Numbered from the stretch's first letter, positions 1-18,087 are shown. The stretch: DNA of 22,450 nt from Nitrososphaeraceae archaeon (GCA_035297365.1 DATGZA010000002.1:1-22450); one strand, 5' to 3'. Translations and numbers: made by a program. The notes: generated from the sequence alone by a model not told the origin.

Positions 1-3000
1 TAGAAACAGGCTTATCCTTCAGAGGGATTTCACCTATAAATTCCCCAGTAGCATTTAATTTAAAAATACTATTGGTTTCTTCATCAGCAACATATAATAT
101 ATCTAATTCTGGATCGACTGCAATAGAAATTGGGGAAGTAATATTCTTACTTGAATCTTCAAGAGATATTAAGGAATCTTCGGACATTTTAAATTTATTC
201 GTATCTATAATGAGAATCTTTCTTTTATTTTCATCTAATATGTACAGCTTTTTATTATTTGGAGAAATTGTTATAGAAGAGGGATAGTATGATTTCAGAT
301 CAAGATTTGTTAAATTACTGTTTTCCAGATCGATCCTTGAAATAAAATTTTTGTCGGGAGAAGAATTAGAAACATAAACATATTTAGAATCGCTTTCTAT
401 ATCCTTTGCTTCAGAAGGAATTATTGAATACTTTTCCCAATCTTTTAAGACTTGTTCTGTATTAGCAATTTGTACTTTTTTCGAATTTACATAGACAAGT
501 ATTTTACTGTCTTCATTAAAAATGGAGTTAGTTGTGTGTAGTGTATCATCCAGAATTTTGTACATAGTATTAGTGTAGCTACTTGTTACATAGATATCAC
601 CAGTAACAATGTCAATATCAATAGAATTTGGATAATTGCCGACTTTTATATTTTTTAAAATCTTGTTAGAAACGGTATCTATGATAGACACTGTACCAGA
701 TTTTTCATTTACTACATAAAGCCTATCAGTTAGAAAATTAATGGCAAGATCAGTAGGTGATTTATAGGCTCCTGCTATTTCTTTAGATATCATAACAGTA
801 TCAAAGGTGGTTATGGTATCCGAATCTTTATTGGCGATATAGATATTTCCAGTTTTCTGATTGATTGCTATTGATGAAGGAAATACGCCTGTCCACAAAT
901 CAGGAAAATCTTTCAAAATCTTTTCATAAGTATATCCATCTAATTCTAAAACTTCATTTTCTAGAGGATCATTGAGATAAATCCGATTAAACATCTCATC
1001 AACGTTAATTGAATTCGCCGATAATCCCACAGAAATATTTGCTATTGGTTTCAAGGTATATAGATCATATACTTTTAACATATTGTTTCCTGATACTAAA
1101 AGACGAGAATAAAATTCATCTATAAAAATTGATAAAGGTTGATAACCAAGGGTGATATTCTTTGTATTTTGGAATTCATGTGTGTAAAAATTATAGTTGT
1201 ATATCGAAATATTGTCTGAATGTTTATATGCTATATATATATCACCAGTAATCTGATCTATATCAAAATGCGATACATCACTTACTTTAATTTCTGTAGG
1301 AAAAGACTTTTGTTTGGAAAATACGTTAATGAATTGCGATTGAAGGTTACTAACATAAACATCCCCGGTATATTGATCTATTTTAACTTCGTGGGGATTT
1401 TTTCCAGTTTGAATACTTTTGACCGGATAAGAAACATCATTTGGTAGAAACATTTTTGGATCGTATGACGATATCTTGTCATATTCTGAAGATGCTATGT
1501 AAATAATACCTTTGTTAGTATTTACAGCAACTGTTCCGGCTTGATTTGTAGATCCTTGAATGGAAATTGTACCTACGGGAAAAATATTTGACGTTTTTGT
1601 ATCTATAACTGATATTTTGTTATCCTTATCGGGCACATATAAAAATTCGTTGTTTTTGCTATCTTCATAATAAGCGGCAGCCAATGGATTTCTTCCCACT
1701 GAGATAGTATTGATAACCTTATGATGATATTTGTTAGTTGAGTTACCATCTATACCTAGGACAGAAACTGTATCAGAAAGTGAATTCACTACAAATATTT
1801 TACTTTTGTCATTTGTTTCGTTTTGTACTACAATATCATTTGGCCCATTCCCAACTATCAGGTTTTGTATAACAGAGTCATTTCTGCTATCTATTATAGA
1901 CACACTATCATCATCATAATGAGCAACATAAACCAAACCATTATAAGGATTTACAGCTATCTCAAGAGGAGATATATTTACGGTTATATTCTTTAATATT
2001 CTGCCATTATAATCTAAAATAGATACCGTACCATTAGTAACAGAATCATCAATATTATTATCCATATTTGATACGTATATTTTATTATTAATAGTGTCCA
2101 AACCCATAGAGTACGAACCAAATCCCCCTGTTAAATTCTCGGTTGATTTATTTGTTAATGTATTTATAATAGTTATGGAGCTCGGACCATCAATCACGTC
2201 TCCAGATTTAGAAAGATTTGTATTTACGACAAATACTTTATGTTCATTGTCATCGAATGCAATTTCGTTTGGCCAAGCACCCACATTTATATTATTCACA
2301 TTATTTTTAATTGTGTCTATAATAGATATTGAGTTATTCTTAGTATTTGTTACATAAAGAATAGAATTCTTTCTGTCAAATGCCATACCAAACGGATCGC
2401 TCCCTACCTCATAATGATCACCGCCTTGTATGTATTTATCAAAATAAATCGGCTTTTGATCACCCGGTAGTATGTTTTTGTCAATATAAATTGGCTTTAT
2501 TGTATTATTGGCTCGCAAATGAATAAATAAAATGTTATTTTCATCATCCACCATCATCTTCCCAATACTTGTTCCACTAATTTTCATCTTTGAAAATTTG
2601 TTTATATCTTGTACACTTTTATCTGGTTCGATTACATGTATGGTTCGAGTGTCAGGCACAGCAACAAAAGTACTGCTATTCTCCTCTCTAAAACCAATAT
2701 ATGCATTTCGTAAATCTTTGAAAGGAATCTTTTTTAAATTTAAATTTTTATCTTTCAATTTAGTTAGATCCGTTGTATCTAGAACAATTAGATCTTGGTA
2801 ATACTTATTATGAATCATCAATTGATTTGTAGGTTCATTAAAAATTACATCACCTGGAATGAAATTTGACTCTCCTAATTCAAGGTCTGGTATAAAATAT
2901 GACTCGCCTCTTTTAATGTCTTTAATTCCTTCTGCCCCAATTGTTTTTAGATTTGCAGGAGTAATATTAGAAACACCATTTCTAAGAAATAAAGATAGTG

Positions 3001-5074
3001 TAGCAGAATCTGAATTAATCAAAAAAATTCTATTATTATCCTTCTCAAGTGCGATGGCTGCTGGTTCGTATAATAGATTGATTACCTCCTTATTTTTAAA
3101 TATAGTGTCAGAAGAATTTTTATATCCAAATATTAGAAGATTATTCGGTTTTTTAGTTGATATGTACAAATAATTATCGTCAAATTTCAGATCGGTTGGA
3201 GAGCCAAAGCCTATTAGAGGTATCGTTCTATTATTATTAATACCATCCTCTTCCTTAAAAAAAGTGATTCCCTTCTTTCCTGATTTATCTGCAACAAAAA
3301 CAAAAGTCAAGTCTTTCTTATTATCATGTATTAACTTTATTGGATTTTCACTAATTTTTATTGTCTTTGTTGGTGGTTCAACAGGGAGCATCTCGAAAAA
3401 TGCATTCATCCAGGGATGCAGTGAACGAATATAATCCCATTTATCTTTTCGTATGTCATAAGTAACGAATTGTCGTTCTTTAGTAATGTAATAAAGTTTT
3501 TCATTACCATTTTCTAGGTCAATGGTCCAGTCTACTGTACTCTCCGGAATTACTATGGGAGGATATTCCGTAAAAGTAATTGTATTGTAATAAACTAGCG
3601 CTCCAAAATAAGCTGCAGCAAGGCCGACGGCTAGGAAAAGTGCTATTAGTTTATAGGTCTTGGTCTGTTTTTTTGTTTCTAAAATTTGCTGTCTTTGCTC
3701 TTGTGTAATAGTTGAAAAATAAGATGTAATAGAGTCTTTTACGATCCTTCTTTTTTCATTATTTTCTAGGCAATCAATAATTTGTAATAAAATATTCTTT
3801 TCATTTCTATTATTGGATATTTTTGATTCTTCTATAAAATATTTAATAGAATTAAAATTCCAAAAATTGGAGTCGATATTTGAAGGATCGAATTCTTTAC
3901 TCTCAAAAAACTTATGGAAACTGATCAATCCAACATTGTCATTTGATTCATCTAAATCAAGAAAATTAGAGCACAATATTAGGAATTCATAGATTTTCTT
4001 ATATCGTCCATCATTAGATGAGAATTCATTAATTTCTTTAAGTATCTTTTTACTTCCCAGGGTATTATTTGTCTTAATTAAATCTTCAGATAACATCAAC
4101 TTGAACCGAATGTTATTATTTTGATCCAACTCTACAATTTTTTTCGATACTAGTAATGCCTCCTCAAAATTAAAATAATTAGGGTAATTTGAATAAATCG
4201 ACCGTAACTTTTCCAAAGTTGAAATTCTCTTTTCTTCTGTTCCTTCAGTTTTTTCGTAAATGCTCAGGACTTTCTTATATTCGTCTTCCGCCTCTTTGAG
4301 ACGTTCGAGAAAAAGTAATGCGTTACCTTTGTAATATCTACTGTCAGCATCCGTACCTACTTTCTGTTTTATAGATATAATCTGGTCAAATAATTTTATT
4401 GCTTTATTATATTGTCCTAGTGATATAGAAGCATTACCTAGATAGGAGAGAGCCTTAACATTGTTGGGGTCGAGCTCTATGTACTTTTCAAATGCAGGTA
4501 TTGATTCTTCATACTCTTTTAAATTATAAAGTGCAAGAGCCTTTAAATACATACCATATCTATTGTTTGGTTCGATTGTCAGAATTTGTTCAACGGGTTT
4601 AAGTGATTCTTTGTAATCTCCAGATTTCTGAAAAGATAATACTTCCTCAGTCAGTTTTTTTATTCTATTTGAATATGCTTCTTGGGCAAGGGCATAAAAT
4701 CTTTCTGCCTCCTCAGGACGATTCAAATAGTCTAATGCGGTAGCCCTGCTAGTATATGCATCAGCCACATATTCCTGTTTTAGGTTAATGACTGAATCAA
4801 ATAGAGATAGTGATTCCTCATAGTTTCCCATGGATAAGTGTGCCAGACCCTTATTGTACAAGGCATGACTGGAAGACGGAGAGACTTCCAATATCAAATC
4901 ATAAATTTTATCTGCATATTCATAATATCCTTTGCCGAGTAAAAGATCTGCTAGTGCAATTAACGAATCGGAACTAAAGTTTTGATCCCGGGTGTTATTA
5001 ACTTTTAGTACAATTTCGTTATCGTTATTAGAAATAGCTACTATTTTGTCTAGCAGGTTGTCTATATCTGTCAT
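1..5074 (-). CDS. Large TPR / single-TM / YVTN beta-propeller repeat membrane protein (receptor 1), >1690 aa, 3' end outside the window
   Basis: Not in the ORF track; sampled segments translated by hand. ATG at 5074-5072 overlaps the caspase TGA (ATGA). Begins MTDIDNLLDKIVAIS..., TPRs (HALYNKGLAHLSMGNYEESLSLFDSVI; SRYYKGNALLFLERLKEAEDEYKKVL), TM at ~3587-3649 (KKQTKTYK-LIALFLAVGLAAAYFGALVYY), then YVTN blades (VGSDPFGMAFDRKNSILYVTNTKNNSISIIDT; SPISIAVDPELDILYVADEETNSI). All sampled segments are in one frame down to position 2, and the track reports no closed ORF here, consistent with no internal stop. Confidence 0.92.
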   Translation of the reverse strand, partial: MTDIDNLLDKIVAISNNDNEIVLKVNNTRDQNFSSDSLIALADLLLGKGYYEYADKIYDLILEVSPSSSHALYNKGLAHLSMGNYEESLSLFDSVINLKQEYVADAYTSRATALDYLNRPEEAERFYALAQEAYSNRIKKLTEEVLSFQKSGDYKESLKPVEQILTIEPNNRYGMYLKALALYNLKEYEESIPAFEKYIELDPNNVKALSYLGNASISLGQYNKAIKLFDQIISIKQKVGTDADSRYYKGNALLFLERLKEAEDEYKKVLSIYEKTEGTEEKRISTLEKLRSIYSNYPNYFNFEEALLVSKKIVELDQNNNIRFKLMLSEDLIKTNNTLGSKKILKEINEFSSNDGRYKKIYEFLILCSNFLDLDESNDNVGLISFHKFFESKEFDPSNIDSNFWNFNSIKYFIEESKISNNRNEKNILLQIIDCLENNEKRRIVKDSITSYFSTITQEQRQQILETKKQTKTYKLIALFLAVGLAAAYFGALVYYNTITFTEYPPIVIPESTVDWTIDLENGNEKLYYITKERQFVTYDIRKDKWDYIRSLHPWMNAFFEMLPVEPPTKTIKISENPIKLIHDNKKDLTFVFVADKSGKKGITFFKEEDGINNNRTIPLIGFGSPTDLKFDDNYLYISTKKPNNLLIFGYKNSSDTIFKNKEVINLLYEPAAIALEKDNNRIFLINSDSATLSLFLRNGVSNITPANLKTIGAEGIKDIKRGESYFIPDLELGESNFIPGDVIFNEPTNQLMIHNKYYQDLIVLDTTDLTKLKDKNLNLKKIPFKDLRNAYIGFREENSSTFVAVPDTRTIHVIEPDKSVQDINKFSKMKISGTSIGKMMVDDENNILFIHLRANNTIKPIYIDKNILPGDQKPIYFDKYIQGGDHYEVGSDPFGMAFDRKNSILYVTNTKNNSISIIDTIKNNVNNINVGAWPNEIAFDDNEHKVFVVNTNLSKSGDVIDGPSSITIINTLTNKSTENLTGGFGSYSMGLDTINNKIYVSNMDNNIDDSVTNGTVSILDYNGRILKNITVNISPLEIAVNPYNGLVYVAHYDDDSVSIIDSRNDSVIQNLIVGNGPNDIVVQNETNDKSKIFVVNSLSDTVSVLGIDGNSTNKYHHKVINTISVGRNPLAAAYYEDSKNNEFLYVPDKDNKISVIDTKTSNIFPVGTISIQGSTNQAGTVAVNTNKGIIYIASSEYDKISSYDPKMFLPNDVSYPVKSIQTGKNPHEVKIDQYTGDVYVSNLQSQFINVFSKQKSFPTEIKVSDVSHFDIDQITGDIYIAYKHSDNISIYNYNFYTHEFQNTKNITLGYQPLSIFIDEFYSRLLVSGNNMLKVYDLYTLKPIANISVGLSANSINVDEMFNRIYLNDPLENEVLELDGYTYEKILKDFPDLWTGVFPSSIAINQKTGNIYIANKDSDTITTFDTVMISKEIAGAYKSPTDLAINFLTDRLYVVNEKSGTVSIIDTVSNKILKNIKVGNYPNSIDIDIVTGDIYVTSSYTNTMYKILDDTLHTTNSIFNEDSKILVYVNSKKVQIANTEQVLKDWEKYSIIPSEAKDIESDSKYVYVSNSSPDKNFISRIDLENSNLTNLDLKSYYPSSITISPNNKKLYILDENKRKILIIDTNKFKMSEDSLISLEDSSKNITSPISIAVDPELDILYVADEETNSIFKLNATGEFIGEIPLKDKPVS

Positions 5075-6405
5075 GATGATGTTGTTCCGATCATTCTTTT
5101 ATATGTCTGATATGCGGGTTTTAATCTTCTTAATAAAATTATTAACTTTGGATCTTTGTCATTTGCATAACCATTTTTAATCTTAACCTGCTCTCCAACA
5201 ATACTCAAAATTGACTTGATAGCATCAGTTTTATTATTAACAATTGTGTCCAGATTGAGTTCACTCACATAGTTAAGGAAATTCTCTATAAGACCACGAT
5301 CTTTAAGTTCCTCTTCTATCTTGATTTTCACATCATCAGGAAGAAGACTACCCCAAGTAAGTACTCCATCAACATACATATCTATTTTAGAGGATATAAG
5401 ATCATTAAAAGAAGGTATTTGTGGATTATCAGGTTTTTGGGATTTCAATTCCTTCAATTTTTTTGCGCAATCTGAAATATATGATATTGAAGGAAAGGAA
5501 GAATCCCCTTCAGGAAATCTTTCCTTGATTGTTTTTTCCAGACTGGTGATATAATAATCAAATTTATCTACAGACAAGGCAATTCTTATAGCAGGCAGGT
5601 TTGAACCTTCACTAACATTAATGTATGAATTTTGTTTCTTGTCATCGGCAAGTTTTTGATTTATGTATTGTTGGAGATTAAATAATGTAATTTCACCACT
5701 TGTTTCATCGGCTGCACCACCTCGTAACCCTTCAATGAAATAATATGTAAATGCACCATGTGGGTGAGGTTCTTTATCATCGCCATAATGGGTGCAGTTT
5801 TTCTTCTCGTATGATACCTGGTCGTTTGCACTGGATGATATGATAAATTTACCAGTACCATAATTTCTGTCTTTTATATTTCCAATATTTCTATCAAGAA
5901 GAGGTGTTAAATCTTTGATTGTCTCTCCTCCTCTTGTATCCTCTGTAGCTACTCCCGAGTAACAACAATCGAGAACAATTATTGCATTTCTCTTGTTTTC
6001 TGATGAGTAGATCTGGTTTCGGAGATCATCTACTTTTATTCCTCCGACATAAGGATCCTTTTTCTTTACTTCATATGTAGATAGATAAAGATCGTTTTTT
6101 TTATCAACAAATCCATGACCTGAAAAATAAAATAAGGCAATATCAAATTCTTCATCCTGTCTAAAAACCTCAGAAATTCTATCAAGGATATCTCTGTGGT
6201 TTGCTTGCTCATTGATTAATAAGTTTTTATCTTCATTTACAAAACCTGCCGCCTGCGAGGTTAACAGTTCAAAGAGTTCTTTGGCATCGTGTTCGGCCCC
6301 TTCTAACTTCGTAATTTCTTTGTCATCGTATTTATCTATACCAACTACTATAGCTACTTTTTTACCTGCTTTGATGTCTGCAGTTGTATCTCCCAAATCA
6401 TTCAT
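5071..6405 (-). CDS. Caspase-family (C14, orthocaspase/metacaspase-like) protease 1 with ~160-aa C-terminal unknown domain
   Basis: KVAIVVGIDKY...LEGAEHDA, catalytic His in FYFSGHG and Cys in IVLDCCYSG, then HGAFTYYFIEGLRG. ATG at 6405 chosen; the ORF track uses TTG at 6414. Confidence 0.95.
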   Translation of the reverse strand: MNDLGDTTADIKAGKKVAIVVGIDKYDDKEITKLEGAEHDAKELFELLTSQAAGFVNEDKNLLINEQANHRDILDRISEVFRQDEEFDIALFYFSGHGFVDKKNDLYLSTYEVKKKDPYVGGIKVDDLRNQIYSSENKRNAIIVLDCCYSGVATEDTRGGETIKDLTPLLDRNIGNIKDRNYGTGKFIISSSANDQVSYEKKNCTHYGDDKEPHPHGAFTYYFIEGLRGGAADETSGEITLFNLQQYINQKLADDKKQNSYINVSEGSNLPAIRIALSVDKFDYYITSLEKTIKERFPEGDSSFPSISYISDCAKKLKELKSQKPDNPQIPSFNDLISSKIDMYVDGVLTWGSLLPDDVKIKIEEELKDRGLIENFLNYVSELNLDTIVNNKTDAIKSILSIVGEQVKIKNGYANDKDPKLIILLRRLKPAYQTYKRMIGTTSS

Positions 6406-6896
6406 CTCACGCAAAATGAAATGGCTGACCCATAAATCAAAGTCAGTAAAAATATGAAATTTTTATTAGATATTACTATACCATCATTATAAGACATAGA
6501 ACTTAACAAGTCATGTCGTAGCGAGAGTACTCTATATTTTGATATGGTACTTCCTATGACTTTAACAATGTAGGCAGAATAGAATTTTTTTACAAAATAC
6601 AATAGAAGATTAATAAAATAGTCTAATAAAGAAATCACGTTTAACATCTATGTGTATTATCATCTTTACATTTTAGTGATTTTCTATTTATAGATTTTGG
6701 TAATATAAAAAAATAAGAAGTTTTTACAAATCGAAGAAGTCTATTTTGTCTCCAGCTAGAAGTTGTATTTTTTCAACTTTTGGCATACGTTGTACACATA
6801 TCATAGATCAGATGTATCAATATATGATGGATCTCTTGCGCAGTTATACCACATCTACGTCTCATTCTTAATCCCGATATGCTCAATCACCGGAAT

Positions 6897-7162
6897 ACAC
6901 TATTCTTCATTACACAGGATTTCACAAGACATGATAAAAATTCTGAAATATGAATATCTTTGTAGTCTGTTCATATTGCGTACCCATTATAGAATTTCTA
7001 TATCTTGTAGATGATATAGTTTATTATACTTCGCTTATTGGAATGGTTTATTTTTGTTATAATATTTTTCTTCCACAGTCAATTCAACATTTCTTTTCTT
7101 CGTTAATGGTAGACTATACTTTACAGTGGAAAACTTTTTCACATCCCAAATATTCCTAAATC
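6897..7162 (-). pseudogene. Decayed C-terminal fragment of an IS5-like (ISL2 / DDE_Tnp_4 type) transposase
   Basis: Joined across frameshifts: DLG/YLGCEK/FSTVKYSLPLTKKRNVELTVEEKYYNKN/HSNKRSIINYIIYKI*KF/NRLQRYS/ISEFLSCLVKSCVM. This resembles, from memory, the DLGYLG..K.FP...LP.KKKR..EL..EEK.YN..HSK.R...EH.I.R.KKF...NRL.RY...SG.VN end of this family. Recognised by eye only. Confidence 0.6.
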
Positions 7163-7454
7163 AAGATTTCGTGCACCTACTTTTCTTATTCTCTTTCTTT
7201 TAGATAGACACTTTACTTCGTATTCCTGACATTTTGATTCTATTTCCCTGTAAATAGAATCAAAATCTGATAATTTCACTCCAGTAAAAAACGTGAACAA
7301 GATGGTTTCTTGATAAACGAGTATAATTTAACAAATCTATGAAAAATCAAGATAGAAATGAGAAATATAGCTTTAAGTTTCCTAATTACGCAAGAGATTA
7401 ATTAATTTAATATCAAGTCCTATTACAATCTATGATTGACTCATCTACCCAGAT

Positions 7455-9476
7455 TTAAAGAAATACTTTTCTTGTAGCAACAACCTCATTTGTCTTTAGA
7501 CCAACAATATCAAGCACTTTTTCGCTGACTTTTGGTCTATCAATACTTATTTTATTTGTACCATCAGTCACATTTTGAGAAAGAACCGGTCTACCGTCAA
7601 CATAAATATCAATACGAGAGACACCGAGGGTAGTAAACTCCATACCTAAAGAGCCAGCTTGATAATCTAGTACTACATCCAGCTGTCTTACCGGCATACT
7701 TGCGAGTATCTCAGACGCCTTCTTTATCAGATCCTCATTTCCCTCTAGTAGGTCTCTGCGACTCATATCATATTTGATATCGGGTGTTATTCCCAAGTCT
7801 TCTATTGGTGTTCCTGCATATTCTCCTACCCGTACGTTTCTGCGAATAGATACTCTCATGTTTGACCCAGAAGGTAATGTTTTTACTTGGTATTTTGTTC
7901 CAGCCAGAATTTGTTGTAAAAGACCGTGTTCCCAAACATTTGCACCGCCGGCTCCTGTATTTCCGTCTACTCCAAGAACCGGACCAATTTTATGATCTTG
8001 AAACCCAGCAGCAAAAAGATCTGTAGCGCTATAACATAAAGCATCTGTTACTAAAAGTACTGGACCGAAGTACTTTTGACCTAAATTATTTGCATCATCT
8101 ATTTCTGTAATAGGGAATCCTCTGGAGAAAATTGAACCTGTAACAATAGATTCTGAAAGGGCAAGCTCCCAAGGCTTTAGGAAAGGTGTTTTACGTGTCA
8201 TTTCAAGGGTAAGAGGAGAGCTTATGAATTGGAATGGTTGTGGTGTAATTTTTTTAGACGTTAGAACTTGCAGAAGACGCTCTGCCGCCGTGATGAGTCC
8301 CCCGCCATTACCTCGTACGTCAATTATAAGTCCCTTCTTTGGAAGCTGCGCCATTAACCGTAGAAATTCGTTAATAAAATCTACATCACTGTTGACCATG
8401 AACGTGAATATTCGTATATATCCTACATCTTCAGAAATTTTCTTTGCCAGAAAGACCTTTGGCATTACACTTTCAAGACCTTCTGCTTTTTCGATCAGAC
8501 TTTCGACAGATCTCGTTCTAGCTAAACGTTGATCGCGCTCCATTACGATTTGTGGTGCAAACAAAATTTGTTTCATCTGCCTAACAAGATCGGTTGTAAA
8601 ATCTAGCCCAATCTTGTATGAATAAGTCGAACTAGCAGACCTGGTATCAAATGTAACATCCTCAATGCCACGTGAATAAACCAACCAATCATGTCGATAT
8701 TCTAAATCCAGACCATCTTCAGTTCTGTAACCTATTACCACCCACTCTTCATCTGGAGGTAGGGAAGCAATGATTGGTCGAAAGGTCATAGATTCTAGCC
8801 CGCGTGCAAAACTAGCTGCTGAATTACTACCTGCATTTTTATTGGCATTAATCTCTACTGCACGTTCCATTGGTACACCATTCCAATAGGTTATGTCTAC
8901 ACCTGGTTTGAATGTAGCAGGAAAAATGTTTTTGTAATCCTCCATAGTATTTGTTACCAAGAATTGTCGTTTATTGTTTTTTACATATGATTCCACTTGG
9001 AATGGAAGAAAGGCGAAATGATCTGAAAATGGTTTAGGTAAACTATAATTTGTATGAAGATCTCTTAGCGACGTAAAGATATCTAAGATTTCTTTATGAA
9101 AATCTAATTCTGGGTTCATCTTATTTGTGGTAGTTTCATCAAGAGTGTGCTGAAGAATTCTTAGTCTTCGTATAGGGTCAACTGCATGCATTGCCCTTTT
9201 TAGAGGCAGGTGTACATAAGCTCCTTCTAACAGTATTAATGCCTGTTCGACAATTGTCTTTCGATCACCAATTGTTAATTTTCCAGTACTAGTAGAATTG
9301 AACTTGTTCAACGTTTGAATAACACCCATCTGTTCTTTTCTGGTTTCAGATAATTCTCTTTCAAATTTTTTTGCAGAATCAACACCTTGTGATGCACTAG
9401 AAATTTCCCTATTTTCTTTAGAACGAGATTTTGTCATAGATCTTTTATGTCCTCTTTTGTCTGATTTTTTGGGCAC
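7455..9476 (-). CDS. S41-family serine peptidase (CPAF/tail-specific protease-like), no signal peptide, basic N-terminal tail, small C-terminal beta-sandwich-like domain
   Basis: GYIRIFTF, LIIDVRGNGGG, DALCYSATDLF (catalytic Ser), GAGGANV, DLHTNY (His) and PIEDLGITPD (Glu), matching the CPAF-type His/Ser/Glu arrangement. GTG start sits ~22-29 bp downstream of a TATA-like box. Confidence 0.9.
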   Translation of the reverse strand: MPKKSDKRGHKRSMTKSRSKENREISSASQGVDSAKKFERELSETRKEQMGVIQTLNKFNSTSTGKLTIGDRKTIVEQALILLEGAYVHLPLKRAMHAVDPIRRLRILQHTLDETTTNKMNPELDFHKEILDIFTSLRDLHTNYSLPKPFSDHFAFLPFQVESYVKNNKRQFLVTNTMEDYKNIFPATFKPGVDITYWNGVPMERAVEINANKNAGSNSAASFARGLESMTFRPIIASLPPDEEWVVIGYRTEDGLDLEYRHDWLVYSRGIEDVTFDTRSASSTYSYKIGLDFTTDLVRQMKQILFAPQIVMERDQRLARTRSVESLIEKAEGLESVMPKVFLAKKISEDVGYIRIFTFMVNSDVDFINEFLRLMAQLPKKGLIIDVRGNGGGLITAAERLLQVLTSKKITPQPFQFISSPLTLEMTRKTPFLKPWELALSESIVTGSIFSRGFPITEIDDANNLGQKYFGPVLLVTDALCYSATDLFAAGFQDHKIGPVLGVDGNTGAGGANVWEHGLLQQILAGTKYQVKTLPSGSNMRVSIRRNVRVGEYAGTPIEDLGITPDIKYDMSRRDLLEGNEDLIKKASEILASMPVRQLDVVLDYQAGSLGMEFTTLGVSRIDIYVDGRPVLSQNVTDGTNKISIDRPKVSEKVLDIVGLKTNEVVATRKVFL

Positions 9477-9497
9477 GCTATGACATATTATTAGTCA

Positions 9498-9515
9498 CTT
9501 ATAAGATTTTTTATC
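9498..9515 (-). promoter_or_regulatory. Putative archaeal BRE/TATA promoter of the S41 gene (leaderless)
   Basis: Minus strand reads GATAAAAAAT-CTTATAAG, with the TATA-like box 22-29 bp upstream of GTG 9476. Confidence 0.45.
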
Positions 9516-9815
9516 TACTCATGGAGTAATTTCTCAAGTTGCATTTTTTAATGGTTAAAAGATGGCAAAATCCATACTCTAAGAGTGTGATCAAAGTTGC
9601 TTCAGAAAGATTTTTTCGGATAAGCTCCAATCATAACCTACTCATAAAATTTGTTAATGTTAATTTTGAATCTAGTCAGTACAGAATAATGCACTTTGCT
9701 ATAAGAATTTGATATCCTCAAATCCATTATCTGTCTTGCTAAAAACGTAAACTATAACGAATGAAAATATGTTCTATTTATAAAAATTAGCTGGCATAAA
9801 AAGAATATTCTATAA

Positions 9816-9983
9816 TCAGCAATAAGGACAATAATACTGAGCATTATCTATAATGTAGCCTGATCCCATAAGGCTTAAAACATTCATTGGAAGGTCTGGC
9901 ATTGAAATTGAAAATGTTCCTACAGCTGAAAGTGACAATATTGTAAAAAGAATTACAATGGAAATTCCCAATAACGCGTTCAT
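9816..9983 (-). CDS. Small 55-aa hydrophobic (signal/TM) protein ending in CPYC
   Basis: Hand translation: MNALLGISIVILFTILSLSAVGTFSISMPDLPMNVLSLMGSGYIIDNAQYYCPYC*. ATG start, co-oriented between receptor 2 and S41, TTTATC about 28-33 bp upstream. Below the ORF-track length cut-off. Confidence 0.55.
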   Translation of the reverse strand: MNALLGISIVILFTILSLSAVGTFSISMPDLPMNVLSLMGSGYIIDNAQYYCPYC

Positions 9984-10064
9984 TTTAAGTTATATAATCT
10001 AATTGAGATAGATAAACATTCCTATAAATCTTAGAAAAAATGTTCCATAATAATCTTCTATTTA

Positions 10065-13000
10065 TTAGTTTTTTCTTGTTCCTAAATCTACATATGAGAT
10101 AATGTTAGATTCAAAGTCCGAAACATAAAGAGTATCTGAATTAATTGTTATAGAGCTATTATTTTTACTTGGCGAAAAACTACCCAACATTGCAATTTCC
10201 AAGGGCTGAATTTTAGGATTAGATTTAGTATAGTTACTTATAACGTAAATCGATTTACTACACTCATGACTAGCATAAACCTTATCATCGTAGAAGTATA
10301 AATCACTTGGACAAGGTTGCCCTAGATTTACCTCCTCATTTCCAATTTCTTGTCCAGATGTAGAATTAATGACTGTCAGTTTAGCTAAATCATCATAAGC
10401 TATAAAGATTTCTTTTCCATCTGGACTTATTACTACAATGCGTGGGAATTTGTCCACTTCTATTTTTTCTAATTCGCTGTCTTTGTTTCCATCAATGACA
10501 GACAAGGTGCCATTTCCATGATTGGCTACATATATTTTATTTGTCTCAGGATTTACAGCGACACTGATTGGATTTTTACCCACAATTAGGTTATTTGTTA
10601 CTGTATCGGTGTTTCCATCAATGACAGACAAGGTGCCATTTCCATGATTGGCTACATATATTTTGTTAGTTTTTGAATTAACAGATATCCCTTTAGGATA
10701 TTTACCTACTGGAATAGTTTCCTTAATTACCTTTTTGTTTTTACCATCAATTACCGATACAGAATCTGATCCGTAATTGCTCACGTAAATCTTAGAGGTT
10801 TTTGTATTGGCATCAAGATCAATGGGTTCTCTACCCACTTGGATATAATTTGACTGATTGTTAAAAGTTATAGTTTTCAAACTAACTATTCCACCGGCAC
10901 TACCTGAAGAAGAAATATACATGGAATTAGTTACATCGTTAATATCAAGATCATAAGGAGAAGATCCTACTTTTATAGTTCTTATTACTTTATCTGTGTT
11001 CGTATCAATAATAGATATAGAATTAGAAACTTTATTAGCTACATAGATTTGATTTTTTTCTTCGTCTATATTTATATGTGTAGGTTTGTTACCTACAATT
11101 ATCTCTTTTATTTTATTTTTTTTGCTGTCAAATACGGATACTACATCATTATCTGGCTGTGTTACATAGATCTTGCCATTTTTTGAATTAACCGCTATTC
11201 CTAGAGGATTTTGTCCTATATTTGTTATAGTATCCACTAGTTTATCAGTTTCTCCATTAATAATAGATATGGAATTAGAATTTCGATTAACAACGTATAC
11301 CTTGCCGCCGTTGGTATCAATGTATATATTAACAGGTTTATCACCCACTGGAACATTGGTCACTCTACTATAATCAGTTCGATCGATTATTGAAACCGTA
11401 TTGGACTCTGAATTTGCTGTATATATCTTGCCATTTTTTGAATTAACCGCTATTCCTAGAGGATTTTGTCCTATATTTGTTATAGTTTTTATTTGTTTGT
11501 CTGTTTCTCCATCAATTACTGACACAAAACCTCGACCTAGATGACTAACATATACTCTGTTCGTGTCTAGATCTAGAGCCACATCATAAGGATTAGCATA
11601 TGGAAGTTTTATAGTTTTAACTGTAGGATTAGGAGGAAAAATATTAAAAAGCTGAAATAGCCAACTCTCTTTACATTCTATAATTGATAAACTGCCTGGC
11701 ACATGATTGACTACGTATACCTTGTTAGTATTCGGATTTATTTCGATTCCAAAAGGCGTATCTTTAACGGGTATATTAATGTCATTCAAGACAGGACAAG
11801 AAACCTGGTAATATATACCAGATATGATTATAAGTCCCGCTACCGTTAACGAACTAAATATTGCTATATTTTTATATTTTCGTTTTATGTTGACGCTTTC
11901 AATACTCTTGTCAACATATTGCCAGAATATTTTTCCACCTTCTTTTCCATACAATAAATCTATCAATTCAAGAATAGCTGTTTTCGAATTGGAATCTATG
12001 TTTTTCTTTTTTTCTACAACTGATATTAGACCCCTAAAATTCCATTCTTTCCTATTGAGTACAATAGGTTTATCACTGTCGTCTAGGTACGCCTGAAATT
12101 TAACAAGCTCTTTACTTCCTTCTTCCTTGTTTCCTTGCAACATATATGAAACCAAAGTCAAGAATTGAAGGATAGCTTGCCTATCCGAAGCATTAGCGGG
12201 AGTCTCTTTAATTAGTTCCTTTGCCAGTTTTCTCCCTTCATTATATTTTCCTTTTTTGATCAATTCCTCCGCTAAAAATATTTTTGCCCTTGATTTTGTG
12301 ACAGTTTGTCCCTCTGTAGCAGTGGCTGCACTCTCTTTAATTAGTTCCTTTGCCAGTTTTCTCCCTTCATTATATTTTCCTTTCTTCATTAACCCCGCTA
12401 ATATTTTTGCTTTCGATTTAGATTTGGGATCAGACAGGTTTTGTATTAGCCTTTCTGTTATAGAAATTGCCTTGTCATGTTGAAAAATGTAATTTGCATA
12501 TAAAGATCTCAATTCAATTAGAGAATCTATATTTTTAGGATCCACTTCAAGAACTTCATTAAAGTATTTTTCTGCCTCTTTGTAGTTTTTTTCACCCCCT
12601 ATTTCTACTAATAATTGACCTTTCTTAATCTTAATATCCAAAATATTTGTAGGATTCATCTCAATGAGCTGATCACAAACATCTATTGCTTCCTTATAAC
12701 GTCCAGACTTTTTAAGAACCGATCCTTTGGCATATAATGCTTCAATATTTTTATCATCAATTTCTAGAACTTTGTCATAACATTCAATAGCCTCTTTTAA
12801 TTTATTGTCCAAGTCAAGTATTTTACCTTTATTTAACCAAGCAAAGAAATTTTTAGAATCTATACTAATTACTCTATCATAACATTGGAGAGCTTTTTTG
12901 TACTGCTCTTTTTTTTGGTAAGAGAAACCCATCTCATTCTTCTCATTGATTTCTTCAACATAATTCTCTGTAACTCGAAGATAGTATTCTTGTGCTTCTG

Positions 13001-13649
13001 AATAGTTTCCAATTTTTTCAAGAACTATACCCTTACCGTTAAGAGCTTCTACATTCTTAGGATCAATACCCAAGACTAAATCATAGGTTTTTAAAGCCTC
13101 ATCATGTTTACCAATTCTCCCAAGAGCTCTGCTTTTCGAATTTAATGCATCGATATTATTAGTGTTTTTTTTTATTACTCTATCATAACATTGAATAGCT
13201 TCCTCATATTTTCCTAATTGACTTAAAGATCTGCCTTTATTATACCAGGCATTGGTATTTTCTGGATCTTTTTCAATAACTCGTTCATAAGATTGAATGG
13301 CTTCAGTGAATTTTTTGAGATAATTCAAAGTATTCCCTTTGTTAGTCCACGCAAGAATATTATCAGGATCTTTTTCAATTGCTTTGTCAAAACAAACGAG
13401 AGCTTCATTATATTTTTCTAAGCCGACTAAGGCCAGACCCTTATTAAGCAAACTCTCTAGATCAGTTGGGTTTAATCGTAGAGCCTCACTAAAAGTCGAA
13501 AGTGATAAATCGAATAAATTCTTCTTTAAAAGACTTTTACCAAATTTACTCCAAGCATGATAATCTAAGGGATTACTTTTTACTAATTCTGCATCTCGTT
13601 TTAAAGTTTCGTCCCTAGCAACAATCTCATCGATAATAAATTCTTCCAT
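10065..13649 (-). CDS. TPR / single-TM / YVTN beta-propeller membrane protein (receptor 2), 1194 aa
   Basis: About 10 canonical TPRs (AWYNKGRSLSQLGKYEEAIQCYDRVI etc.), basic stretch KRKYK then TM IAIFSSLTVAGLIIISGIYY (~aa 595-614), and 13 countable YVTN-type blades (7+6). Starts 7 bp after the caspase-2 stop. Confidence 0.95.
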   Translation of the reverse strand: MEEFIIDEIVARDETLKRDAELVKSNPLDYHAWSKFGKSLLKKNLFDLSLSTFSEALRLNPTDLESLLNKGLALVGLEKYNEALVCFDKAIEKDPDNILAWTNKGNTLNYLKKFTEAIQSYERVIEKDPENTNAWYNKGRSLSQLGKYEEAIQCYDRVIKKNTNNIDALNSKSRALGRIGKHDEALKTYDLVLGIDPKNVEALNGKGIVLEKIGNYSEAQEYYLRVTENYVEEINEKNEMGFSYQKKEQYKKALQCYDRVISIDSKNFFAWLNKGKILDLDNKLKEAIECYDKVLEIDDKNIEALYAKGSVLKKSGRYKEAIDVCDQLIEMNPTNILDIKIKKGQLLVEIGGEKNYKEAEKYFNEVLEVDPKNIDSLIELRSLYANYIFQHDKAISITERLIQNLSDPKSKSKAKILAGLMKKGKYNEGRKLAKELIKESAATATEGQTVTKSRAKIFLAEELIKKGKYNEGRKLAKELIKETPANASDRQAILQFLTLVSYMLQGNKEEGSKELVKFQAYLDDSDKPIVLNRKEWNFRGLISVVEKKKNIDSNSKTAILELIDLLYGKEGGKIFWQYVDKSIESVNIKRKYKNIAIFSSLTVAGLIIISGIYYQVSCPVLNDINIPVKDTPFGIEINPNTNKVYVVNHVPGSLSIIECKESWLFQLFNIFPPNPTVKTIKLPYANPYDVALDLDTNRVYVSHLGRGFVSVIDGETDKQIKTITNIGQNPLGIAVNSKNGKIYTANSESNTVSIIDRTDYSRVTNVPVGDKPVNIYIDTNGGKVYVVNRNSNSISIINGETDKLVDTITNIGQNPLGIAVNSKNGKIYVTQPDNDVVSVFDSKKNKIKEIIVGNKPTHINIDEEKNQIYVANKVSNSISIIDTNTDKVIRTIKVGSSPYDLDINDVTNSMYISSSGSAGGIVSLKTITFNNQSNYIQVGREPIDLDANTKTSKIYVSNYGSDSVSVIDGKNKKVIKETIPVGKYPKGISVNSKTNKIYVANHGNGTLSVIDGNTDTVTNNLIVGKNPISVAVNPETNKIYVANHGNGTLSVIDGNKDSELEKIEVDKFPRIVVISPDGKEIFIAYDDLAKLTVINSTSGQEIGNEEVNLGQPCPSDLYFYDDKVYASHECSKSIYVISNYTKSNPKIQPLEIAMLGSFSPSKNNSSITINSDTLYVSDFESNIISYVDLGTRKN
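10484..10664. repeat. 55-bp perfect direct repeat (10484-10538, 10610-10664), spacing 126 bp = one 42-aa blade
   Basis: Identical DNA encoding KIYVANHGNGTLSVIDGN twice. Confidence 0.9.
11170..11486. repeat. 62-bp perfect direct repeat (11170-11231, 11425-11486), spacing 255 bp = two blades
   Basis: Identical DNA encoding TITNIGQNPLGIAVNSKNGKI twice. Confidence 0.9.
12203..12383. repeat. 52-bp perfect direct repeat (12203-12254, 12332-12383), spacing 129 bp = 43 aa
   Basis: Identical DNA encoding KGKYNEGRKLAKELIKE twice in the helical region before the TM. Confidence 0.9.
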
Positions 13650-13656
13650 TGACCCT

Positions 13657-15000
13657 TCACATCAAATCTTTCTTGTTTTTGATGTCACAAGCCGCTCGCA
13701 ATCGTCCTATAAAAGTTCCCAACCTTTCGTCTTCTGGCGATTGAAATATGTTATTTCTTTTAACCTCTGAAAACAAATGAATTAAAAGTAGACCACTAGA
13801 TGCATCTGATTTTAGCAATTTATCAAAGTTTAGCGATTGAACCGTTTCAACCAATTCCTCATAAAAATCCATTTTAATATTCTGATTTAATTTTGGTCGT
13901 ACTATTCTATAGTTATTACTTAGCCAGTTAATTGCTGGTTCTTTGTACATTCCCAATTCGTCATTAACAATAGCCTTTAAGTTATTTATCTCCCGGTTTC
14001 TATCATCTACTTTAATTAATTCCCCAATTTTTTTTGACGCGTCGTCTAATGCTTGTATATCTATTAGCTTAGTTATTGGATCTCTCTGTTCAAAATATTC
14101 CTTAGTACACTTTATTAGATCAGATATTTTGGCATTATGTATAGCAGGAGATGTTCCCAATTTTATATTTTCCAGTTTGTATGATCCCTGAGATATAGCA
14201 TAGAGAGGTTTTTGTCCTTTTTCTCGTTCCATCTCACTGGAAACATAATTTCTTAAACTGTATATGTTGATAATACCCGTGTCAGGATCTGCTGCTTTTC
14301 CATTCAATCCTTCGATCAAATGAAAAGAGAAATTTCCGTGGGGATGTGCTGGTTCATCTTTATTAACATGAACGAAATCCCTTTCTCTTGATACGGCATC
14401 AGGTTCACTAGATGCGAGGACAATTTTACCAGTTGCATAACTTTCTGGGGAATTTTCACCAGATTCACTAGAATTAATTAGGTCAGTAAGATTAGAGTTG
14501 TACAAATCTTTTTCTTTCTGATCATGGGTTAAGGAAGTCATAGATTTAGTTGCCTCTGTGGATATTCCCGCAAAGCAGCAGTCAAGAATCATCATCACAC
14601 TTGCATAGTTTTTAGAATTAAACATTGTATTTTTTATAGAGTCCATTTCTATTCCAGAAACGAAAGGATCTTCTGGATCCATGTCGTAGGGAGCAATATA
14701 TCCCTTTTTAGACATCTGTTCGTTGCAACCATGTCCAGAAAAATAAAACGTTACAAGATCACATTTGATATCTTTTCGAAATACATCACTAATTGCTTTT
14801 AAAATATTTTTTCTAGTCGCTTTCTTTCCCAATAAGAGATGATTATCTGATACTTGGAAATTACAATTTTTGATGAATGTTTCACAAACTTCTTTGGCAT
14901 CGTTCTCTGCTCCGCCTAATTGTGTAATTGAGCTGGATTCGTATTCATTTATGCCTATTACAATAGCTCTTCGATTCTCATTTTTCTCTTCATCACTCAA
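13657..15000 (-). CDS. Caspase-family (C14) protease 2, paralog of protease 1, with the same C-terminal unknown domain
   Basis: RRAIVIGINEY...LGGAENDA, FYFSGHG, MILDCCFAG, HPHGNFSFHLIEGLNGKAAD. TTG start preceded by purine-rich GTGAGGAAGG. Confidence 0.95.
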   Translation of the reverse strand: MSDEEKNENRRAIVIGINEYESSSITQLGGAENDAKEVCETFIKNCNFQVSDNHLLLGKKATRKNILKAISDVFRKDIKCDLVTFYFSGHGCNEQMSKKGYIAPYDMDPEDPFVSGIEMDSIKNTMFNSKNYASVMMILDCCFAGISTEATKSMTSLTHDQKEKDLYNSNLTDLINSSESGENSPESYATGKIVLASSEPDAVSRERDFVHVNKDEPAHPHGNFSFHLIEGLNGKAADPDTGIINIYSLRNYVSSEMEREKGQKPLYAISQGSYKLENIKLGTSPAIHNAKISDLIKCTKEYFEQRDPITKLIDIQALDDASKKIGELIKVDDRNREINNLKAIVNDELGMYKEPAINWLSNNYRIVRPKLNQNIKMDFYEELVETVQSLNFDKLLKSDASSGLLLIHLFSEVKRNNIFQSPEDERLGTFIGRLRAACDIKNKKDLM

Positions 15001-15057
15001 CTGTAAAGACCTTCCTCACGAAAATTTGAAGAAAAATTCTGCATTACATTATCAATA

Positions 15058-15105
15058 AGGTAGCTATCGTTAGGATCTGGCTCTGCCACGATAGATATCC
15101 TACCT
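15058..15105 (-). promoter_or_regulatory. Imperfect inverted repeat / possible RNA hairpin upstream of caspase 2
   Basis: Minus strand AGGTAG-GATAT-CTATCGT...ACGATAG-CTACCT forms a 13-bp stem with a 5-nt bulge and an inner GGC-AGA-GCC. Confidence 0.4.
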
Positions 15106-15711
15106 GATTTTTTATATCTCAAGTTTTTTATAGCAGAGATATCATAATATGGTATAATAAAATTTATTTTATTAAAAAAAATTGTAAGATAACTGCAATC
15201 TCCGAAAAAGATTTTATGAATATTCAAATGGTAGTTCTGGCAGTTGCGAATCATCTATTATTATAATCCTCATTATTCTTCTTTTTATAGTTATTTATCA
15301 TTTATTGTGTCTCAAGAATATCTGTTTTCAATATTTTGTTTTCAAATTCCTAAAACTGAGAGATAACACATAATCATAATTATTTTTATTCTCTTTTTTA
15401 GCCCTCTCTAGTTTCTAATACCATCTATATATTATCTTCTATAATTCTTAACCCAGTCAGCATCATGTGATAATTGATACGAACGTTTCTTGCTATCTAT
15501 ATTTTTGTGTAACAGTACTTTCTTCTTTTGCTTTGCCTAATGGTCTAAATAGTAAGATGAAAATATAATATGTTCAAAATCTTCTCTTTTGTAATTTTGA
15601 ATATCTAACGATTGGTTAAAATTTTCATTTTCATATATTTGACTATTGGACTTGAATTCTCTTCTAAACATAATAGAAAGAAGGTTTTTTAGTAATTAAA
15701 TTAAATATCAA

Positions 15712-16104
15712 ATGAAATTGGGTAATAATTCAAGAATAATGGTGGTTGATGATGATGTAGATTTAGATGAAATTTACCGGCTAATTCTCGAAGATAATGG
15801 GTTTAATGTAGAGACTTTTAATAATCCCTTTGAGGCGTTGGAGTGCTTTAGACAAAAACCAGAAAACACATTTGATCTAATGTTGATAGACATGGTCATG
15901 CCTGGAATGAATGGTGCTGAGTTATACAGGGAGATGATGAATTCTAATAAAAAAATGCCGAACGTTTGTTTTATTACAGGACATCCAACATACTACGATG
16001 TTCTTAAAGATTCGTTTCCAGAAATTAAAGTAAGATGTTTTATTAGGAAACCGGTTGATAAGAACGAGCTAATAATACATGTTAAACAGGAAATAAACAA
16101 ATGA
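15712..16104 (+). CDS. Single-domain response regulator (REC/CheY-like)
   Basis: IMVVDDD acidic pocket, LMLIDMVMPGMNG phospho-acceptor Asp, FITG, IRKP; no output domain. Confidence 0.93.
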   Translation: MKLGNNSRIMVVDDDVDLDEIYRLILEDNGFNVETFNNPFEALECFRQKPENTFDLMLIDMVMPGMNGAELYREMMNSNKKMPNVCFITGHPTYYDVLKDSFPEIKVRCFIRKPVDKNELIIHVKQEINK

Positions 16105-17275: not shown

Positions 17276-17433
17276 AGAGAACATAGTGGCATCTTTGGTC
17301 ACACATCGTCTGAAATGTTTCTCGTGAAAGGATGATTAAATAGTTATAAGAATAACAAAATACTTCAAATAAAAAGGATTACCCAGGTTGGATAATTGGA
17401 TCTGTTACCTGTCTATCAATGTACAGCAGTTAT

Positions 17434-17452
17434 GTAAAAGATCTTTATATAG
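17434..17452 (+). promoter_or_regulatory. Putative BRE/TATA promoter of the transthyretin-like/GMC pair
   Basis: GTAAAAGATC-TTTATATAG; TATA 17444-17451 lies 22-29 bp upstream of in-frame GTG 17473. Confidence 0.5.
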
Positions 17453-17472
17453 TTGTATTTTATAATTATTTT

Positions 17473-18087
17473 GTGAATATTTTTTCAGTTCAAGGAAAAA
17501 TAATCAGTCAAACAATCACTTCTTTTAATGGCTTAAAAATTCAGGTAATGGACGATGATCAACAATGGTTCGAAGATCGCAATGACGATCTATTGGGATC
17601 GAGCTGGGTAAACCATGACGGTTCTTTTGAAATTAGTTTTGACGATTCGTCTTTTAAGGATACCTGGGTGGAAATGGAACCAAGAATATATCTGATAATA
17701 AGAAATAAAGATGGACAGATAATACACAGAACTACCCAATATAAAATTCAAATAGATGATAAAAGAGAGACAACTATTAAAATACCTATAACGGTTACTA
17801 TTGATTCCCTAAAAAAGAAACCAGAATTAATAACAGATATAGATCCATATGCAAACAATAATAATAGAATTTTGTCAGCGTTTTCTTCTTTAAATGATGT
17901 TTATACAATAAACAACAGTGATTTTGTTAGAAATTTTACACTTTTGAATAATTCTATTAATGCATGGTTAGTATATGCCCAAGAATTTTCTTGGAAAAGG
18001 ATTGGATATGATGGTCCGCAGGTTCCAAGATATCCGCGAAAACAGCCAGATCATAAACATACTTTATCATGGGAGAAAATGGCATGA
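17473..18087 (+). CDS. Transthyretin-like beta-sandwich protein with a C-terminal W..IGYDGP tail, probable GMC accessory subunit
   Basis: VQGKI...GLKIQVMDDD...DDLLGSSWVNHDGSFEISFD...EPRIYLII pattern; TGA overlaps the GMC ATG (ATGA). GTG 17473 preferred over the track's 17419 because of the TATA position. Confidence 0.65.
   Translation: MNIFSVQGKIISQTITSFNGLKIQVMDDDQQWFEDRNDDLLGSSWVNHDGSFEISFDDSSFKDTWVEMEPRIYLIIRNKDGQIIHRTTQYKIQIDDKRETTIKIPITVTIDSLKKKPELITDIDPYANNNNRILSAFSSLNDVYTINNSDFVRNFTLLNNSINAWLVYAQEFSWKRIGYDGPQVPRYPRKQPDHKHTLSWEKMA

Follow-up and report, generated by a model that had tools for sequence, protein, structure and literature searches.

Two diverged copies of a conserved caspase/TPR protease module in a Nitrososphaeraceae archaeon

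What does a caspase-like protease do in an archaeon that carries its gene twice on one contig, each time followed by the gene of a large TPR protein with a membrane segment and a propeller? The question is raised by a 22,450-bp contig of a Nitrososphaeraceae archaeon (GCA_035297365.1, DATGZA010000002.1:1-22450; genome of 2.5 Mb with 30.5% GC), which was analysed over its whole length and is called the window in the following. Caspase-fold proteases combined with repeat-type sensors recur in prokaryotic immunity, e.g. in Craspase, in gasdermin systems and in type IV Thoeris. Hardly anything has been learned about them in archaea, or in ammonia oxidisers, which are important to the nitrogen cycle of soils; the host of the present genes is a soil ammonia-oxidising archaeon. 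An initial annotation of this DNA had read the two gene pairs as receptor-coupled caspases, in which an external propeller senses a ligand and a cytoplasmic part activates the cognate protease. Our analysis of sequences and predicted structures points to a real, conserved and uncharacterised module, a variant of the prokaryotic caspase/TPR conflict-type modules, to which the membrane-bound propeller appears to have been added in one lineage.

The minus strand of the window carries five genes: recA, caspA, an S41 peptidase gene, recB and caspB. In cassette B, caspB (13657..15000) encodes a C14 (metacaspase-like) protease of 447 aa that is predicted to be cytoplasmic, and recB (10065..13649) encodes a type-II membrane partner of 1194 aa. 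In cassette A, caspA (5071..6414) encodes a C14 protease of 447 aa (starting at a TTG) or 444 aa (starting at the ATG at 6405) with a C-terminal domain (CTD), and recA (2..5074) encodes a partner of at least 1691 aa, the gene being open at the contig end. Open reading frames (ORFs) and domain matches agree with the two diverged caspase-partner pairs of the initial annotation. The gene junctions it had described could be read directly in the sequence: caspA and recA share a start-stop overlap, ATGA, at 5071-5074, and caspB and recB are 7 nt apart ('agggtca', 13650-13656). The two caspases are 32% identical across 431 aa covering both domains (E 1e-69), the two partners 23% (E 5e-48). Cassettes A and B are old diverged paralogues; the age of the duplication follows from the long branch that cassette A shares with G003:C291, which at 50% identity is the nearest relative of caspA.

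Both caspases match the Pfam family Peptidase_C14 (PF00656), with E-values of 4e-21 for caspA and 3e-23 for caspB (76.1 and 83.4 bits at a cut-off of 21.4). In alignments of 39 sequences the catalytic His of the SGHG motif is kept in at least 90%, the second Cys of LDCC and the HxHG motif are invariant, and a C-terminal region of ~165 residues is conserved. The catalytic residues are H90/C142 in caspB and H100/C151 in caspA, such that the His/Cys dyad is intact in both proteins as had been claimed. Two Asp residues, one in the GAENDA motif and one two positions ahead of the catalytic Cys, presumably form the acidic S1 pocket of metacaspases, which would predict an Arg/Lys specificity. CaspB consists of the C14 domain (~1-284), in which the catalytic Cys is directly followed by a disordered loop at 144-190, and of a helical CTD (285-447). 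Its AF2 model has a pLDDT of 82.5, with values above 90 for the CTD helices. A Foldseek search with this model found metacaspase-9, MALT1 and Yca1 at ~E 1e-8 (probability 1.00); these matches are confined to the protease domain and were confirmed at the sequence level. Profile, dyad and caspase-hemoglobinase fold, the latter taken from the caspB model, thus all identify caspA and caspB as C14 proteases. Neither has a transmembrane (TM) segment by hydropathy.

The CTD itself had no match in Pfam or NCBIfam, and in the ESM Atlas its neighbours were generic helical or TPR-like folds alone, with a TM-score below 0.5. The nearest family of the whole caspase is NCBIfam NF047832 ('caspase, EACC1-associated type'), which scored 81.7 bits for caspB and 132.1 bits for caspA. 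Across seven members including these two the scores ranged from 81.7 to 136.4 bits and all stayed below the NCBI cut-off of 140.

Both partners start with TPR arrays and continue with YVTN/YncE/NHL propeller repeats, as found with Pfam and NCBIfam. The YVTN repeat family TIGR02276 scored 231 bits for recB and 100 bits for recA at a cut-off of 27.85. In recB the TPRs (~1-380) are followed by a partner-specific post-TPR domain that we call PTD (~381-590), a TM segment (595-613) and a predicted extracellular YVTN/YncE-type propeller (616-1194). RecA has the same order, with TPRs, PTD at ~285-470, TM segment at 476-494 and then propeller repeats that are again predicted to be extracellular. The predicted ectodomains measure 580 aa in recB and more than 1190 aa in recA. 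Each partner has one hydrophobic segment, with five Lys or Arg among the 15 residues that precede it and none among the 15 that follow, and neither N-terminus is hydrophobic or contains a signal-like segment, in agreement with the initial annotation. From sequence a topology with the N-terminus inside and the C-terminus outside is most likely, because the positive-inside count favours it and because the same TPR-PTD occurs in soluble, signal-less form beside a cytoplasmic caspase. The density of N-glycosylation sequons, tried as a further test of topology, was higher outside, a difference that composition fully accounts for.

The PTD is marked by the motifs LYSNYxF, LAExLIKxGKYxEGRK, RFLILSSYxLEG, WNFxGL and LIDLLxGK. 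In the alignment it forms the C-terminal end of soluble partners and stands directly before the TM segment in membrane partners. A search with a language model returned generic TPR clusters as its neighbours, which serve as a lead only. Homology between CTD and PTD (the 'EAD principle') was also considered and was rejected at an hhalign probability of 0.8%. Within recB a helix of the PTD is doubled by a 129-nt tandem duplication at 12171-12392 (KGKYNEGRKLAKELIKE), whose copies are 84% identical and which is also present in the L070 and L071 orthologues.

How tightly caspase and partner belong together was seen from other genomes. CTD-bearing homologues were gathered from relatives' genomes, species genomes and metagenomes, and 40 caspase loci were analysed, L091 being excluded as it has no intact caspase ORF. 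At 35 of them a same-strand ORF begins between -67 and +180 bp from the caspase stop codon. At the remaining five, either less than 210 bp of sequence was left (four loci) or a TPR ORF follows 651 bp further on (L018). Once five near-duplicates had been removed, every one of the 30 non-redundant downstream proteins gave a TPR_1 match (E<=1e-5). The PTD was found in four of 61 related genomes (G000, G003, G006 and G010), which are the genomes that have a full-length caspase. Pairwise distances among caspases and among PTDs were correlated, the co-divergence that had been proposed as a check (Mantel r = 0.845 for 16 pairs, with none of 9999 permutations as high).

Caspase and partner also occur in one chain: P0126 (1004 aa) combines C14, CTD, TPR and PTD. 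Further fusions have the order TIR-TPR-caspase-CTD (P0047) or TPR-caspase-CTD (P0045, P0069). In P0062 a TIR domain seems to precede the latter half of one caspase and then the first half of a second one; a tandem array or an assembly artefact may underlie this. That caspase and TPR protein make up a conserved functional unit, and that their pairing is not due to chance, is supported from comparative sequence data by their adjacency in other genomes, their co-divergence, the complete fusion and the genome-level co-occurrence together. A complex prediction for recA 1-475 with caspA, made from separate alignments, returned a score of 0.00, the value with which the tool gives no verdict.

A different picture from that of the initial annotation emerged for the propeller, which had been read as the sensor of the system. 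In an exhaustive profile search, 92 clusters among the 150 best PTD-profile matches carry the PTD core. It is C-terminal in 73 of these, followed by a TM segment in 16 and by a tail lacking a TM segment in 3; a propeller is present in 14 of the 16 TM-type clusters. Soluble partners of 370-614 aa with neither TM segment nor propeller are found in Methanoperedens, ANME-1, Nitrososphaera, Bryobacteraceae, Terriglobia and Bacteroidota, i.e. also in Acidobacteriota. In the caspase tree every TM-type locus, including both cassettes of the window, falls into one clade (100/98, 20 rows) that is nested among loci with soluble TPR partners. All of its rows with a recorded origin belong to Nitrososphaerales, the others being metagenome rows that carry no taxon. 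The two rows of this clade that look soluble, L023 and L032, are split or frameshifted membrane-type partners. Judged by this tree and these counts, TM segment and propeller are a minority, lineage-specific addition to a cytoplasmic module, found in one Nitrososphaerales clade; therefore the coupling of caspase and TPR protein does not depend on an outside sensor.

Soluble-type loci, except the ANME-1 locus L030, carry a further, well-conserved gene of ~190-220 aa 5' of the caspase, here called gene X (L026:6371-6940, L027:6397-6987, L028:6348-6980, L031:6402-6980, L034:6396-6995 and others). It has the motifs GENVF, YLFYYPG, NLFVNIGRLNDP and PVIIVTA and no family in Pfam, NCBIfam or PADLOC. 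Its predicted fold is thioredoxin-like and lacks CxxC; the best match had a Z of 8.2 with an rmsd of 2.2 over 86 residues, and Foldseek gave a middling ~E 0.01. Gasdermin or TIR identities were dropped, as the fold searches listed thioredoxin-like folds only, with middling scores. No row of the TM-type clade, which is nested among loci that combine gene X with a soluble partner, has gene X itself, and tblastn did not find it in the genome of the window (best E = 1.4).

The cassette had been described as a two-gene unit. The pair holds, but a CheY-like receiver beside cassette B and its relatives had been missed. In the window this stand-alone protein of 130 aa (15712..16104, plus strand, divergent from caspB) matches Pfam Response_reg (PF00072) at 1e-20 and 74.1 bits, with a cut-off of 30.2. 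It keeps the acidic DD pair, the phospho-acceptor D60, the Thr and the Lys-Pro in eight orthologues. Among the 15 TM-type loci with enough upstream sequence, eight have a receiver at a distance of ~650-1250 bp upstream of the caspase; its orientation is divergent in the window, L069 and L070 and co-directional in L024, L078, L079, L081 and L032. Receivers from distant loci with differing other neighbours are 43-48% identical. The gene is absent from cassette A and from loci linked to a GMC oxidoreductase gene. These patterns make the receiver a likely third component of the B-type cassette.

Receiver and caspase are separated by a spacer of ~650-725 bp in seven of the eight receiver-bearing loci. 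In the window it spans 15001..15711 (711 bp, no strand assigned), is AT-rich and presumably contains a promoter or leader. The spacer has no conserved ORF, and its frame-independent conservation at the DNA level is limited to close relatives. A conserved non-coding block at ~15182-15316, ~180-315 nt upstream of caspB, is shared with L069, L070 and partly L076 and may be a promoter or leader element. The idea of a hidden third gene upstream of both caspases was discarded, since the small ORFs there (81 and 85 aa) are kept only among near-identical loci and match no family.

Selection was assessed by comparing caspB and recB with their L071 orthologues, a single pair. Identity and dN/dS were 85% and 0.09-0.12 for the C14 domain, 57% and 0.50 for the CTD, 77% and 0.21 for the TPRs of the partner, 85% and 0.27 for the PTD and 87% and 0.26 for the ectodomain. 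Since dN/dS lies between 0.09 and 0.50 in all parts, caspB and recB are under purifying selection throughout and hence functional. The ectodomain is the most conserved part in this comparison and the CTD the least, followed by the TPRs, which would fit an external sensor engaged in an arms race poorly. For the same pair dS falls from ~0.6 in caspase and TPRs to ~0.25 in PTD and ectodomain (window 10065-15000); this drop within the partner gene hints at recombination between lineages inside it.

Short contigs (92-573 nt for those listed) from RNA libraries that three studies made of soil match parts of the two caspase genes, the two partner genes and the S41 gene with an identity of at least 95%, and each caspase/partner junction is spanned by one contig. 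They are weakly consistent with transcription of the cassette genes, and DNA carry-over could give such contigs as well. The receiver and the non-coding gaps are not covered, which by the rule of the tool is not evidence of silence. Across the archaeal family the caspase is present in seven of 238 species genomes (five of 116 high-quality ones) and in four of 18 genera. Within the genus itself it occurs in three of 24 other genomes (4/25 with G000), with up to three diverged copies per genome.

The reading that we prefer, with a confidence no more than middling, is that the window carries two ancient paralogous copies of a caspase/TPR-PTD protease module in which the TPR-PTD part regulates or gates the caspase, and for which a conflict-type role is favoured. 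The first gene encodes a metacaspase-like C14 protease of the cytoplasm, in which the His/Cys dyad is intact and which ends in a family-specific helical CTD. The second, translationally coupled to the first, encodes a TPR protein that ends in the family-specific helical PTD and would act as regulator or sensor by holding or gating the caspase, probably via the fast-evolving CTD. In the membrane form this cytoplasmic switch would be tethered to the cell envelope, with the propeller as anchor or as an extra input. Once released, the caspase might cut cellular targets or a dedicated one, candidates being the receiver and the partner itself; the receiver could add a phosphorelay link or serve as the substrate. 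The rare, patchy, multi-copy and cross-domain distribution together with TIR-fused relatives favours a role in conflict, of abortive-infection type, or in stress response over housekeeping.

A number of observations weigh against this reading. The conflict role is uncertain because a defence-island context is lacking: soluble-type loci are flanked by varied housekeeping genes, and an IS110 transposase stands beside one of them. PADLOC did not recognise the system and returned generic caspase and TPR matches only. Plasmid and phage collections yielded partial C14-domain matches and no full-length homologue. The GC content of the cassette genes (0.31-0.34) is ordinary for a genome at 0.305 +/- 0.031. 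The correlation of caspase and PTD distances is equally expected from vertical co-inheritance alone, and in G010:C2 a partner gene follows a GMC-oxidoreductase gene with no full-length caspase adjacent. Finally, the TM call and the placement of TPRs inside and propeller outside, most likely right by charge count and by the soluble relatives, come from hydropathy and a charge count and not from a trained predictor.

Could the propeller nevertheless be the sensor, as initially suggested? It would bind a virus, a competitor or a surface polymer, the signal would pass the membrane through the TM segment, and the TPR-PTD part would recruit or activate the caspase in the manner of a death receptor or a pattern-recognition receptor. 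We regard this outside-in scheme as possible but doubtful. The likely topology, the very large ectodomains under purifying selection and the retention of the propeller in 14 of 16 TM-type clusters suit it, the receiver suggests a signalling context, and metacaspase-CHASE2 fusions have been interpreted likewise (PMC3501461). However, most lineages (73/92 clusters) do without an ectodomain, and where it exists it is the slowest-evolving part (87% identity compared with 57% for the CTD), unlike an arms-race sensor, though this would suit a conserved ligand. Moreover, a helix that passes the membrane once and is joined to no known domain for dimerisation or signalling offers no obvious route of transmission. 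A version restricted to Nitrososphaerales, in which the module has become a true transmembrane receptor-caspase whose propeller reads a cue from the envelope or from outside, whose TPR-PTD releases or activates the caspase via the CTD and whose receiver gates it or links it to a phosphorelay, we consider unlikely. If it were true, such a device would represent an outside-in proteolytic death or immunity pathway made from a widespread cytoplasmic caspase-TPR switch.

Proteolysis of a regulatory or housekeeping kind would account for several of the same facts. In this case the caspase would process its partner, for example by releasing the TPRs from the membrane, or cleave the receiver, in the service of envelope or S-layer upkeep, adhesion, biofilm formation or a developmental or stress switch. 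Tight translational coupling, a conserved ectodomain, neighbourhoods that are not defence islands, normal GC and the linked receiver domain are all compatible with it. A module present in 7/238 genomes of the family and 4/25 of its own genus (G000 included) is, however, too rare for housekeeping; it has moreover spread as a unit over archaeal and bacterial phyla, can occur in several diverged copies per genome and has TIR-fused relatives, such that we take this alternative to be quite improbable. That the adjacency has no meaning at all, a caspase gene having come to lie beside an abundant type of TPR surface-protein gene and the two having been duplicated together, is strongly disfavoured and in our view very improbable. 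TPR and YVTN surface proteins are indeed common in archaea, and the caspase-partner link is known here from genes alone. Yet chance neighbours would not be expected to give TPR genes at 30 of 30 downstream positions, a partner-specific PTD only in genomes that also have the caspase, a single-chain fusion, a gene order kept across two domains of life and an ATGA overlap of start and stop codons.

The preferred module has a recognisable signature, a C14 protease with its own CTD and a TPR protein with its own PTD, plus a thioredoxin-fold gene or a CheY receiver, and it occurs in both prokaryotic domains. Its soluble and membrane-tethered forms provide a natural comparison for how a caspase is gated. 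It is also a candidate for receptor-coupled proteolysis in archaea.

Other features of the window lie around the cassettes. The S41 peptidase gene (7455..9476, minus strand, 673 aa) stands between them; the protein has a basic N-terminus and no signal peptide, and its NCBIfam match to a CPAF-like family is weak (86 bits at a cut-off of 250). The GC content of the gene (0.384) is above the 95th percentile of the genome. It is also found 3' of recB in L071 (91% identity), and it is probably a mere neighbour because this adjacency is not kept in more distant loci. Between the S41 gene and caspA lies a 1-kb AT-rich stretch (6415-7454, GC 0.283) in which no ORF exceeds 83 aa and which does not resemble the spacer between receiver and caspase in cassette B. 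At 17419-22305 a trio of genes encodes a 222-aa protein, a 907-aa GMC oxidoreductase and a 427-aa protein with no assignment. The trio adjoins a cassette in several same-genus genomes (L016, L019, L076 and L069) in varying orientation, and in G003:C135 genes for a 215-aa protein and a GMC protein lie 160 bp upstream of the caspase and run in its direction. The arrangement probably reflects synteny at the genus level. The window gave no Rfam match, and its only repeats were the internal TPR and blade repeats, with no flanking repeats of mobile elements. In the same-genus locus L019 (G010:C2), a 'caspase island' at 2614-8623 and 14005-15834 contains a short CTD-less C14 protein resembling caspA (64% identical), a second C14-like ORF, a CHAT protease with TCAD7 and the orphan TPR-PTD partner; the CTD-less C14 and CHAT-TCAD7 genes lie 5-9 kb from the partner gene.

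How does the module relate to systems already described? The literature surveyed gave no account of a TPR-TM-propeller gene that stands next to a caspase gene, nor of the CTD/PTD module; the supplementary tables of Kaur et al. (2020, 2021), which might list such cases, were outside the scope of the survey. The initial statement that no described archaeal system of this architecture was known agrees with this; related ideas are, however, in print for EACC1-caspase systems and for CHASE2 metacaspases. Bacterial metacaspases can be fused to TPR or WD40 repeats or to the extracellular receptor domain CHASE2, the CHASE2 fusions being from cyanobacteria, and archaeal metacaspases were found in that study only in Euryarchaeota (Asplund-Samuelsson et al. 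2012, PMC3501461). C14 or CHAT proteases with TPR, LRR, WD40 or NACHT domains are associated with gasdermins (Johnson et al. 2021 preprint). As in the present module, a caspase homologue is coupled to a repeat-type sensor, and for CHASE2 proteins, too, a receptor outside and a caspase inside are predicted. Unlike these single-chain bacterial proteins, the window has separate genes, a YVTN propeller and an archaeal host, and it contains no gasdermin gene.

In Craspase (TPR-CHAT, Csx29) of type III-E CRISPR-Cas a TPR array likewise controls a caspase-fold (clan CD) protease (PMC9729208). There, TPR and CHAT form one polypeptide that is activated by crRNA-guided gRAMP, whereas here C14 protease and TPR protein are separate; the window contains no CRISPR repeat array and no cas gene among the ORFs scanned. 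Type IV Thoeris (10.1101/2024.10.24.620036) shares a C14-type protease whose C-terminal domain is uncharacterised and presumed to take up the signal for activation, and TIR fusions occur among members of the present family (P0047, P0062). Its partner is, however, a TIR protein and not a TPR protein, and the C-terminal domains were compared by description only. TIR was absent from the scanned ORFs of the window and from the loci examined, occurring only as a fusion in few distant family members.

The closest described system is EACC1-caspase, a conflict system that consists of two genes and is associated with the membrane, with a 5' EACC1 gene for a small single-TM protein, which is reported mainly from Actinobacteria (PMC7159879). 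From the sequences compared, the module described here is not a member of it, because it lacks both the EACC1 gene and a variable effector tail. The lack of a 5' EACC1 gene is judged mainly by the poor conservation of the small upstream ORFs of 81 and 85 aa. Instead of variable C-terminal effector domains the caspases have a constant helical CTD across 39 aligned members. The membrane component is a downstream TPR-PTD-TM-propeller protein of 1200-1700+ aa, which in most relatives is not a membrane protein, and the module is found in archaea and a few bacterial phyla. What the two have in common is a two-gene unit of a constant caspase-superfamily protease and a membrane-associated component that is proposed to sense and then to activate, with a caspase type that is the nearest sequence relative (NF047832) of the caspases in the window.

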